From an uncultured archaeon (lineage in GTDB: Archaea > Asgardarchaeota > Lokiarchaeia > Sigyniarchaeales > SOKP01), in the NCBI GenBank assembly GCA_964508365.1, contig CAZDTP010000025.1, positions 1 to 50,013 on the forward strand: a DNA stretch of 50,013 nucleotides, written 5' to 3'. Both the position numbers and the translations under genes were made by a program. Positions 2,448 to 49,104 of this stretch are shown here, in pieces; position 1 is the first letter of the stretch, and each line of letters starts with the position of its first letter. The notes under the pieces are model-generated. The model was not told the DNA's origin. It did not search any database and was given only the letters and a program-made list of their open reading frames with translations.

Positions 2448-3656
2448 TTGAGATTATCTGAAACAATACACATAAATAAATCTGACCAACTTTCTAAATT
2501 GTGTCATTTAGCTAAGAATTTACATAATATTGCTAATTGGTATGTAAGACAAGATTTTCTTAAATTAAATAATTTTCTCAATTACTACGATCTGGATTAT
2601 ATCTTAAAAGATAAACAAGTATATAGAAAATTACCCTCCCAGACTTCGCAACAGATTCTAAAGCTAGTTGATAGAAATTGGAGATCGTATTTTAGAGCAT
2701 TGAAGGAATATAGAGCGAAACCAATGAAATTTAAGAAAAAGCCAAGAATTCCACATTATAAAAAGAAGAATGGAGAATATATCGTTATTTTTACAAACCA
2801 GCAATGCAGAATTAAAGAGGGGTATTTATATTTTCCAAAAAAAGTTAATCTCAAACTGTTAAAAACAAGAATAAAGGAAAAAATAAAAGAAGTAAGAATT
2901 TTACCATTAGGAATAAAATATAAAATAGAAATTGTCTATGAAAAAGAAGAGCAGGATTTAGGACTAAATAAAAATAAGATACTGTCAATTGATTTAGGGT
3001 TGAATAACCTTATAGCTGCTGTAAATAATATTGGAGTTGACCCATTTATTATTAAAGGTAAGGTGATAAAATCCATAAATCAATATTACAACAAGCAACT
3101 AGCACATTTCAGAAGCATAGAAAATAAGAAAGGTAATTTTCAAGACACTAAGAGAATTCAAAAACTACATTTAATCAGAAACAATAAAATAAACACCATA
3201 TTTCACCGAATTTCCAAGAATGTAATCAAGTATTGCATTCTAAATAACATAGGAACAATTGTAATGGGTTATAACAATGGATGGAAACAGAAGATAAATA
3301 TCGGAAAAAAGAATAATCAGAACTTTGTTCAAACCCCCTTATTGAAATTGGTAAAACAAATAGAATATAAAGCTCAATTAAAAGGAATTGGCTTCTTAAC
3401 CATTGATGAAGCCTATACTTCTAAGTGTAGTTTTTTGGATAAAGAATCCATTGAAAAACATGAAATATATTTAGGAAAGAGAATTAAAAGAGGGTTGTTT
3501 AGAACATCAAAAGGATTAAAAATCAATGCCGACATAAATGGAGCATATAATATCATGAAAAAAGCATTCCCAAACGCCATTTCGGTTGATGGGATAGAGG
3601 TATTCGGACTAATGCCACAAATAATCCAACAAAACATCGTTGATAATATTATTTGA
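2448..3656 (+). mobile_element. tnpB: IS200/IS605-type TnpB RNA-guided endonuclease, solo (no recognisable tnpA)
   Basis: RuvC-I LSIDLGLNN, IVMGYNNGWKQ, DEAYTSKCS, RuvC-III INADINGAYNI; N-terminal SQTSQQIL helix typical of TnpB. Confidence 0.92.
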
Positions 3657-9457: not shown

Positions 9458-9542
9458 GCGGGAATTGCCAAGTCTGGTCTACGGCGCTGGACTTAGAATC
9501 CAGTCTCAGAGGAGTTCGGGGGTTCAAATCCCTCTTCCCGCA
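9458..9542 (+). tRNA. tRNA-Leu(TAG), intronless, long variable arm
   Basis: Acceptor GCGGGAA/TTCCCGC, anticodon arm CTGGA-CTTAGAA-TCCAG, T-loop TTCAAAT. Confidence 0.97.
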
Positions 9543-9703: not shown

Positions 9704-9805
9704 GCTCTCGTAGTGTAGTCCGGCCAAACTTTCCAAAAAAGAAAGGGCTTGGCATGCTAGGCTTTCACCCTGGTGACCCGGGTTCGAATCCCGGCGAGAG
9801 CACCA
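9704..9805 (+). tRNA. tRNA-Glu(TTC) with a 24-nt D-loop intron at 21/22 (9728-9751); CCA encoded
   Basis: Anticodon loop CTTTCAC; BHB helix GGCC/GGCT, bulges AAA and TGG, outer helix CTTTC/GAAAG; removal restores D-stem GTGT/GCAT. Confidence 0.93.
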
Positions 9806-9846: not shown

Positions 9847-10027
9847 GCCTCGATAGCTCAGCTAGGTAGAGCTCCGTTTCGGTGTGCCTAAAGCACCCGG
9901 CTAAGGTAAAATCATTTTACCTCCGGAAGTTAACCGGGCGGTCGCATGTTCGATTTGTTGACTAGTTTCTGGGCAATACGAGAACCATAAAACTATCGAT
10001 TTCCGAAGTTTGGTTTAGCTCGGGGCG
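9847..10027 (+). tRNA. tRNA-Asn(GTT) with four introns: 9870-9891 (22/23), 9903-9928 (33/34), 9955-9984 (59/60), 9989-10017 (63/64)
   Basis: Each intron has a 4-bp helix with two 3-nt bulges; the spliced product is a 74-nt cloverleaf with stems GCCTCGA/TCGGGGC, GCTC/GAGC, CCCGG/CCGGG and GCATG/CATGC. Confidence 0.9.
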
Positions 10028-10083: not shown

Positions 10084-10698
10084 TTAAAGAAATAAAGGAA
10101 GGCTAGTAGTAAATCCTGCTAACAATCCCGTCACGATGCCACTTATTAAAGAGACCATTGATTTTTTTGTTTTAGTTCCTTCTTTATTAATGATCTGCCA
10201 TATGCTTATTGTAATCGTCAAGAGCGCCATAAAGGAAACTATAGCTACTCCGTAATAAATAGTTTTCTCGTATGGATAGGTTGTCTTATTAATATCTGAA
10301 ACGCTGTTTAATGCAAAGGGATCAAATATTCCTGATAAAGAAATAAAATTAAAAATGAGCCTATCAGGTAAGGGATCTAAAACAGCCAGCAAGAAGAATG
10401 TGAACCAATCGAATAGAATTCCGAACGCAAAAAGGATGTAAAGCGTAGCTAGAATTAATCGAGGCTTCGTCATGGGATTATCCGCTAGCTTTTGTTCCTT
10501 TTTGTATTTCATCCGCGCTAAAATGTACTTTCCTCTTAAACTAAAAAAGGTTAAGATTCCGATAATGAGCAGTATACCAAAAAAAACATATTTCAAATAC
10601 CCAAATACCAATTCAATAAAAGAATTAATCTCGATAAACAAATCGTCAAAGTTGGGTAAAAATGGGATTATTTGATAGAAAATGTGGGTGATCATCAA
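10084..10698 (-). CDS. Hypothetical multi-pass membrane protein
   Basis: 204-aa ORF with about four hydrophobic segments; no recognised family. Confidence 0.7.
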   Translation of the reverse strand: MMITHIFYQIIPFLPNFDDLFIEINSFIELVFGYLKYVFFGILLIIGILTFFSLRGKYILARMKYKKEQKLADNPMTKPRLILATLYILFAFGILFDWFTFFLLAVLDPLPDRLIFNFISLSGIFDPFALNSVSDINKTTYPYEKTIYYGVAIVSFMALLTITISIWQIINKEGTKTKKSMVSLISGIVTGLLAGFTTSLPLFL

Positions 10699-48314: not shown

Positions 48315-49104
48315 GATTAAACCTTTTTATTCTTTTTATTCTTTTTAATCTTTTAAATCCTTTAATTGTTGAACATTTCGTAAAATTTGAAATTATACTC
48401 CTATTCGAACCAAGTATCTTAGCATCCATTGACATATATTATACTCGTCTTATCTGGTTTCTTAATTTTTTATTTTTCCCCGTAATTACCCCTTAATACA
48501 ATCTCTCCTAAATATCCACCATAATTAAAATTTTATCGCTGCTTCATAGTAACCATTCGTAATATTTATAGGAATGCTCACACCCCCCTTTTATAGTTTA
48601 TGAATTCCGACCATAAAATTTTTATCTAACAAATTACTCTAATATTTCGTCGATGATTTTTTAATTTGTGATCGAAGTTTATCCCTATTACCATCGACAA
48701 GTTATTGGATGTGATAAATATCTCATCGAACCATGATGACATACCGCCAATAACGGACACCGGCCTTATGGAAGTATATCAGAAGAGACTACGGTCAAAA
48801 TGCATGATACTACAGGAAATAAGTGCCTAAAACGACCTATTCCTCGGTTGTTTCAGGATTCCGGACCAAGCACGAGCGTACGAACAAAAATATACAAAAC
48901 AAAAGAAACAGAAGAAATAAAAAAATACAAAAAAATAACAACGATTCGTGCTCAAAGGAACATACTCCCCATAAGTATGAAAATATACAATATTTTCGTC
49001 TCAATTTTAATTTCAATTTCAATTTCCAAAAATGTATCGTTTCCGAATACATAAGCCTTTTCACAAGCAATCTGAATCTTTCCTCAAGTAGACGCCAATA
49101 CGCC

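Follow-up and report, generated by a model that had tools for sequence, protein, structure and literature searches.

The window (the whole stretch of DNA analysed, 50,013 nucleotides) carries on its forward strand a tRNA-Asn(GTT) gene that is interrupted by four introns. A search with a neighbouring protein led to relatives whose MAGs bear the names Promethearchaeota or Promethearchaeia (Lokiarchaeia-type Asgard), and an archaeal 23S rRNA gene starts at window position 49092. ARAGORN and Rfam detect a tRNA-Leu gene at 9458–9542 and a second interrupted tRNA at 9704–9802 (+), 44 nt upstream of the Asn gene. The latter is probably tRNA-Glu(TTC); ~23 nt are inserted in its D-arm region and, unlike the Asn gene, it encodes its CCA end. 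Further upstream, an ORF at 2448–3656 (+) combines OrfB_IS605 and Cas12f1-like TNB domains, as in a TnpB-like transposon-associated nuclease.

The tRNA-Asn(GTT) gene and its introns

The gene, its exons and its introns are as follows.

9847–10027, + strand: tRNA-Asn(GTT) gene with four introns, from the ARAGORN call of the spliced product
9847–9872 (or to 9875), 9895 (or 9898)–9902, 9929–9954, 9985–9988 and 10018–10027, + strand: exons of tRNA-Asn(GTT)
9873–9894, + strand: intron 1, 22 nt, near position 25/26, placed by orthologue comparison
9903–9928, + strand: intron 2, 26 nt, position 33/34, placed by sequence reading and intron-free orthologues
9955–9984, + strand: intron 3, 30 nt, position 59/60 in the T-loop; its homologue stands alone in 10 genomes of the genus
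9985–9988, + strand: exon 4, the micro-exon CCAT, 4 nt, tRNA positions 60–63
9989–10017, + strand: intron 4, 29 nt, position 63/64 in the T-stem

Joined, the five exons give a 74-nt canonical tRNA-Asn(GTT) cloverleaf in ARAGORN with either boundary of intron 1, and the A26 and T26 versions of the spliced product both fold as tRNA-Asn. The product loses its ARAGORN call when exon 4 (CCAT) is left out, and the unspliced gene (9847–10027) has neither an ARAGORN nor an Rfam match. G10027 is the discriminator, CCA is not encoded, and a T-rich tract lies downstream. The T-arm of the spliced product is the same as in intron-free orthologues, and excision at the bulges described below gives a canonical tRNA. 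Because the orthologues without T-arm introns (L049, L022) read TTCGATCCATGC, given also as ...GCATGTTCGATCCATGC..., the junctions of introns 3 and 4 are exact to the base.

The boundary of intron 1 is ambiguous by up to 3 nt (9873–9894 to 9876–9897) because C is repeated there. Across orthologues the 3′ side of this intron is invariant (ACCCGG) and the 5′ side variable, and sequence inspection found no canonical BHB in any of the four registers. In some orthologues a homologous intron with the core TCGGTGTGC sits in the D-loop, against ~25/26 here, as if the intron had slid; this D-loop homologue includes a copy of the exon segment AGAGCACC (loci L002–L005, L013, L117). Intron 2 has a BHB with the central helix CCGG (9897–9900)/CCGG (9923–9926), the bulges CTA and AAG and the inner helix AGGTAAAA/TTTTACCT; orthologues that lack it read CCCGGCTGTTAACCGGG (L018).

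That the gene model is wrong, or that the gene is a pseudogene with motifs arisen by chance, is highly improbable. Such a reading can point to the missing ARAGORN and Rfam calls for the unspliced gene and to the lack of a canonical BHB for intron 1. Against it, the exons are kept in more than 40 genes of four genera, with a compensatory acceptor-stem change (A7-U66 vs G7-C66), and the spliced product is matched by the intron-free orthologues. Moreover, no second tRNA-Asn(GTT) gene was found in this genome, which is scored 100% complete, and the only copy found must therefore work. Orthologues are present in 25 of the 42 genomes of the genus. ARAGORN reports only 29 tRNA genes in the 4.07-Mb genome (G000), where most tRNA genes probably escape detection because their introns are non-canonical or multiple.

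Two BHB motifs with shared bases

Following the definition of Marck and Grosjean (2003) as quoted in later work, we took a motif to have a central helix (H) of 4 bp, made by the four bases that precede each 3-nt bulge, and to be cut within the bulges. The segments that matter for the motifs of introns 3 and 4 (BHB3 and BHB4) are listed here.

9949–9952, + strand: TTCG (T54–G57), 5′ strand of the BHB3 central helix, from the pair list
9979–9986, + strand: dual-use segment CGAGAACC, from the pair lists and covariation
10012–10015, + strand: GGTT, 3′ strand of the BHB4 central helix, from the pair list and covariation
10019–10022, + strand: CTCG (positions 65–68), optional 3′ strand of a BHB4 outer helix, in competition with the T-stem and acceptor stem

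In BHB3, T9949–G9952 (UUCG) pairs with C9979–G9982 (CGAG), including one G-U pair, the bulges are ATT (9953–9955) and AAC (9983–9985), and the inner helix h′ is TGTTG/CAATA (5 bp). Its outer helix is the T-stem itself, GCAUG/CAUGC. Intron 4 splits the T-stem, which leaves 3 bp of this helix before its removal and 5 bp after, and BHB3 is thus incomplete until intron 4 has gone. In BHB4, as it forms in the unspliced context, A9983–C9986 (AACC) makes four Watson-Crick pairs with G10012–T10015 (GGTT), the bulges are ATA (9987–9989) and TAG (10016–10018), and h′ is AAACT/AGTTT (5 bp). An outer helix is possible between CGAG (9979–9982) and CTCG (10019–10022). The h′ helices of both introns covary among orthologues.

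The two motifs draw on the same eight bases. In BHB3, the CGAG of CGAGAACC is the 3′ strand of the central helix, AAC is the bulge, and the base that follows is the first of its T-stem strand; in BHB4, CGAG is the 5′ strand of the outer helix and AACC the 5′ strand of the central helix. As the partners of 9979–9986 differ between BHB3 and BHB4, the motifs exclude each other. The pair lists thus agree with the original prediction that AAC at 9983–9985 is both the intron 3 bulge and part of the intron 4 helix, and its coordinates are correct; the overlap in the outer helix had been missed. It had likewise said, rightly, that the intron 4 helix would read ATCC/GGTT with a U-U mismatch if intron 3 were gone first.

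The overlap is partly forced: upstream of its 5′ cut a BHB takes up six bases, four of helix and two of bulge, and exon 4 has four. The two that BHB4 lacks come from intron 3 in the unspliced context, where T10014 and T10015 of intron 4 pair with its last two bases, or from exon 3 in the spliced context. In one sequence alone the complementarity is only mildly improbable; we put its chance at about 0.1, given the likeness of TTCG to CTCG and the fact that the tail is usually AA.

Covariation and turnover of the T-arm introns

Within the genus, both T-arm introns occur in five genomes (G000, G005, G021, G014, G009), intron 3 only in ten, intron 4 only in nine and neither in three; intron 4 homologues also stand alone in 7 genomes of two sister genera. 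Family pattern searches found four-intron tRNA-Asn genes in the genera g22 and g28, and further intron-4-only genes in g27 and g28. A metagenome scan, in which the pattern put no constraint on the critical bases, gave 37 matches, from which 12 two-intron genes were kept; many of the 37 were chance matches in unrelated GC-rich DNA, and L119 was removed from the comparison as spurious. The comparison set comprises 22 distinct two-intron genes, from three genera and the metagenomes, and 13 distinct genes with intron 4 alone.

In all 22 two-intron genes, the dinucleotide that ends intron 3 is complementary to the outer two bases of the intron 4 helix strand, a count which, given the kinship within each genus, amounts to about three independent covariation events rather than 22. 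The dinucleotides differ between lineages (tail/strand AA/TT in this genus and the metagenomes, TC/GA in g22, TT/AA in g28), and three different complementary dinucleotides are hard to account for unless the intron 4 helix is built on the tail of intron 3, which would mean that recognition of intron 4 takes place before intron 3 has left. With exon bases 58–59, by comparison, the same strand forms both pairs in none of the 22 genes, and the inner pair is broken in 18 of them. The g22 genes, which tolerate an internal C-A mismatch in the intron 4 helix, would keep only 1 or 2 of its 4 pairs after intron 3 removal, and L172 (g28) keeps 3 of 4 in either context.

In an alignment built in genomic context (A2), the pair formed by columns 8 and 39 is AU in 12 genes, UA in 11, CG in 4, UG in 4 and GC in 2, and it is unpaired in 0 of 33. 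It scores 0.362 for covariation, where shuffles give 0.165 and none of 500 came as high, and the covariation collapses when the partner is slid. In the 13 intron-4-only genes, the partner of the strand base is invariably exon base 59; the pair is U-A or U-G, and G-C in genes with G at 59. The contrast is seen most directly between L118, a metagenomic gene with both introns, and L017, which has intron 4 only: their fourth introns are identical except for GGTT vs GGAA. At the level of sequence comparison, the covariation shows that the complementarity in the overlap is not due to chance.

The outer helix of BHB4 has partial covariation, with A-U in this genus and G-C in g28. In the lineage of this genus, intron 3 has G as its third-last base in each of the 14 distinct two-intron genes (as CGAG or CGGG), from where it can pair with C65 in this helix, and all three intron-3-only genes of clades I+II have A, not G, at that place. 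The 13 intron-4-only genes have 3-of-4 central helices and essentially no outer helix, and are presumably spliced in this relaxed form.

Intron content varies across the genus and its sister genera, where introns 3 and 4 occur alone and together, and the two-intron module is found in two other genera. By parsimony on the tree of the linked RPA gene, each intron is present in all deep clades of the genus and each needs at least 6 to 7 changes. Under equal costs intron 3 comes out, by a slight margin, as the earlier of the two on the branch leading to this genome; when gains are at least twice as costly as losses, intron 4 is also ancestral. The proposal that intron 4 was gained after intron 3 is therefore neither supported nor contradicted, as the inferred order flips with the gain/loss cost. 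Two sister species (G006 and G016; L011 and L014) have identical 5′ halves of the gene, one with intron 3 only and the other with intron 4 only, and the G009 MAG holds two tRNA-Asn alleles (C148 and C430; L005 and L059), again with identical 5′ halves, of which one has both introns and the other intron 4 only. Either very fast turnover or exchange between strains may lie behind this distribution of introns.

The contigs of the closest relatives (G011:C159, G031:C264, G028:C113, G004:C268; L063–L066), whose RPA proteins are 89–97% identical, end before the tRNA-Asn gene or start just after it, that of G011 at the position matching window base 10208. This suggests that strain-level variation or repeats at the tRNA cluster break the assemblies. 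Even more heavily interrupted versions of the gene occur elsewhere. A 215-nt tRNA-Asn gene on the metagenome contig JABUBQ010001456.1 (L140:2817–2865 and upstream) seemingly has five introns, combining both the D-loop and the 25/26 types with those at 33/34, 59/60 and 63/64. In L169 and L170 (G094 and G096, g27), 31 nt more (GCCAGGGG) lie between a normal-looking intron 4, ending in GGGAAA, and exon 5, possibly a truly nested additional intron at the 63/64 junction.

Order of splicing in the T-arm

The genome encodes the enzymes that this splicing would call for. The EndA family (PF01974) is represented by two genes (200 and 201 aa), which lie in the regions G000:C9:62333–62557 and G000:C1:52100–52348. 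One of them has its closest matches in chains of the crenarchaeal catalytic subunit, 3p1z_B and 3ajv_B, and an RtcB ligase is present (E = 7e-168). The part of PMC5829648 that treats Asgard EndA describes it as an (alpha-beta)2 type with an L1 loop that permits relaxed motifs.

Calculated motif energies support removal of intron 4 before intron 3, without deciding it. At 37 °C the precursor form of BHB4 has a local energy of −9.7 kcal/mol, or −6.1 if its outer helix is left out, which weakens to about −0.3 to −2.2 kcal/mol once intron 3 is removed, while BHB3 goes from −5.4 kcal/mol in the precursor to −11.4 after intron 4 removal. The difference has the same direction in all 22 two-intron genes, and only this direction is used, since the energies of the intron-3-spliced forms become artificially positive when isolated pairs of the outer helix are forced. 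The folding ensembles have the same tendency: the probability of the intron 4 central helix is 0.7–0.8 in the precursor and ≤0.03 once intron 3 is removed, the intron 3 helix has 0.03 in the full precursor, and the T-stem has ≤0.07 before intron 4 removal and 0.99 (one pair 0.53) after, although whole-gene pair probabilities are noisy across orthologues, with P(H) near 0 for some functional single-intron genes, and were rejected as a test. The outer helix CGAG/CUCG, which competes with the acceptor stem, has an ensemble probability of ~0.002.

We consider it probable (about 0.7), from the comparison of orthologues, that the order in the T-arm is fixed or strongly biased, with intron 4 (63/64) removed first and intron 3 (59/60) second. 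The precursor would be matured by successive rounds of cutting by EndA and rejoining by RtcB. It would fold with AACC paired to GGUU, so that the last two bases of intron 3 complete the central helix of intron 4; in this genus, the four bases before them would also supply the outer helix of BHB4. EndA would cut both ends of intron 4 and RtcB would join CCAU to GC..., after which the T-stem GCAUG/CAUGC, the outer helix of BHB3, could close. At that point the shared bases would leave the helix and become the AAC bulge, and intron 3 would be taken out by EndA and RtcB. An intermediate with intron 3 kept and intron 4 gone, in which the tail of intron 3 is followed by exon 4 and exon 5 (…CGAGAACCATGCTCGG…), is predicted; one with intron 3 gone and intron 4 kept, in which exon 3 is followed by exon 4 and intron 4 (GGTTTA; …GTTCGATCCATAAAAC…GGTTTAGC…), is not. 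Because BHB3 and BHB4 cannot coexist, the two introns cannot be cut in one step, and we infer from this exclusivity that the 4-nt exon would be kept from release as a free fragment.

The most serious competing explanation is that there is no fixed order, the overlap being a geometric by-product of the 4-nt exon, and that a two-subunit endonuclease of broad specificity cuts whichever motif forms first, both routes ending in mature tRNA. Any exon shorter than 6 nt makes the downstream BHB borrow upstream bases; intron-4-only genes have relaxed helices with no outer helix; this genome has two paralogues of the EndA type to which, in the section of PMC5829648 concerned, acceptance of relaxed motifs is ascribed; and this gene without intron 3 (−2.2) comes close to the weakest of the natural intron-4-only motifs, which range from −2.4 to −13.9. 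This explanation leaves unaccounted for that intron 4 is complementary to the intron 3 tail, and not to base 59, in 22 of 22 genes with three different dinucleotides, and that the 8–39 pair is never broken in the unspliced context; we regard it as unlikely. Considerably less probable still is the reverse order, in which intron 3 is transcribed, folded and removed first and intron 4 is then cut from a relaxed ATCC/GGUU helix. In its favour, intron 3 is transcribed first, which could promote its earlier cutting, the precursor form of BHB3 retains its central and inner helices along with 3 bp of the outer one (−5.4 kcal/mol), and in the g22 and g28 precursors the local stability of BHB3 equals or exceeds that of BHB4. 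Under the reverse order, the second pair of the intron 4 helix would be broken in 18 of the 22 genes and those of g22 left with 1 or 2 pairs of 4, the probability of the helix in this gene would drop to the ≤0.03 given above, and the covariation of the tail would be functionless.

Removal of intron 4 before intron 3 is thus the direction to which tail covariation, energies and the splitting of the T-stem all point, as the original prediction had it. Its word "obligatory" goes too far: a relaxed intron 4 helix may still be cut after intron 3 removal, as the intron-4-only genes illustrate, and an obligatory order cannot be claimed on sequence alone because the Asgard type of endonuclease is reported to accept relaxed motifs.

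A removal order imposed by one intron interrupting the recognition structure of another is familiar from the twintrons (introns within introns) of Euglena plastids, where it is obligatory; these are self-splicing group II/III introns, not protein-cut BHB introns. Nested multi-intron pre-tRNAs of archaea were reportedly treated by Sugahara et al. in 2007 (RNA 13:671), by Sugahara in 2008 and by Tocchini-Valentini et al. in 2009 (PNAS 106:20246). As recounted in the relevant parts of two later papers (PMC3728597, PMC3978253), nested pre-tRNAs of Crenarchaeota have a last intron whose BHB forms only after the others have been removed. The likeness, judged through these citing papers, lies in the several BHB introns of one pre-tRNA, in the sequential cycles of cutting and joining, and in the nesting itself, intron 4 here lying within the outer helix of the motif of intron 3. 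In contrast to the crenarchaeal cases as described there, the host is a member of the Promethearchaeota/Lokiarchaeia rather than of the Thermoproteales or Sulfolobales, the introns number four rather than three, the stated maximum for Thermoproteales, introns 3 and 4 stand side by side at a distance of 4 nt, and the order is read from natural covariation rather than from cleavage in vitro.

In the multi-intron and permuted pre-tRNAs of Cyanidioschyzon merolae, according to the portion of Soma et al. (2013, PMC3728597) that deals with them, the order of BHB removal follows the free energy of the motifs, and splicing intermediates were seen by RT-PCR. The more stable motif would come first here as well (BHB4 −9.7 vs BHB3 −5.4), whereas the C. 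merolae motifs, stated in that portion not to be nested, fold independently and those described here share bases and are exclusive. For Asgard archaea, a recent census (2026, bioRxiv 10.64898/2026.10.13.758758) describes, in the text available to us, up to five intervening sequences per tRNA gene, with repeated gains and a preference for BHB-forming sites. That text centres on Jordiarchaeia and Atabeyarchaeia, scores every intron with all the others spliced out and is silent on splicing order; by its scoring, intron 4 of the present gene would rate only "relaxed" (3 of 4 pairs).

A stronger reading is that the tail of intron 3 is a recruited "surrogate exon" which the intron at 63/64 strictly needs, the two introns forming a co-evolving module with programmed refolding, in at least three genera of Promethearchaeota, whose function is to prevent release of the 4-nt exon. 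We hold this reading tentatively, at somewhat less than even odds.

Ordered splicing of neighbouring tRNA introns is a principle already known from other archaea, of which this gene is a well-supported example; it leaves the known mechanism of archaeal tRNA splicing unchanged. Its interest is moderate and lies chiefly in unusually clean comparative evidence, as one tRNA gene in ~40 related genomes offers a natural allelic series in which introns 3 and 4 each occur singly, occur together or are both missing. Compensatory changes alone suffice here to read the order of two splicing events, which is a cheap route to the RNA processing pathways of uncultured archaea. A BHB intron can depend on the sequence of an adjacent intron, and censuses that score motifs in the fully spliced context therefore misclassify such introns. 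If the surrogate-exon reading is true, scoring in that context would make the splice motifs of heavily interrupted Asgard tRNA genes seem poorer than they are.
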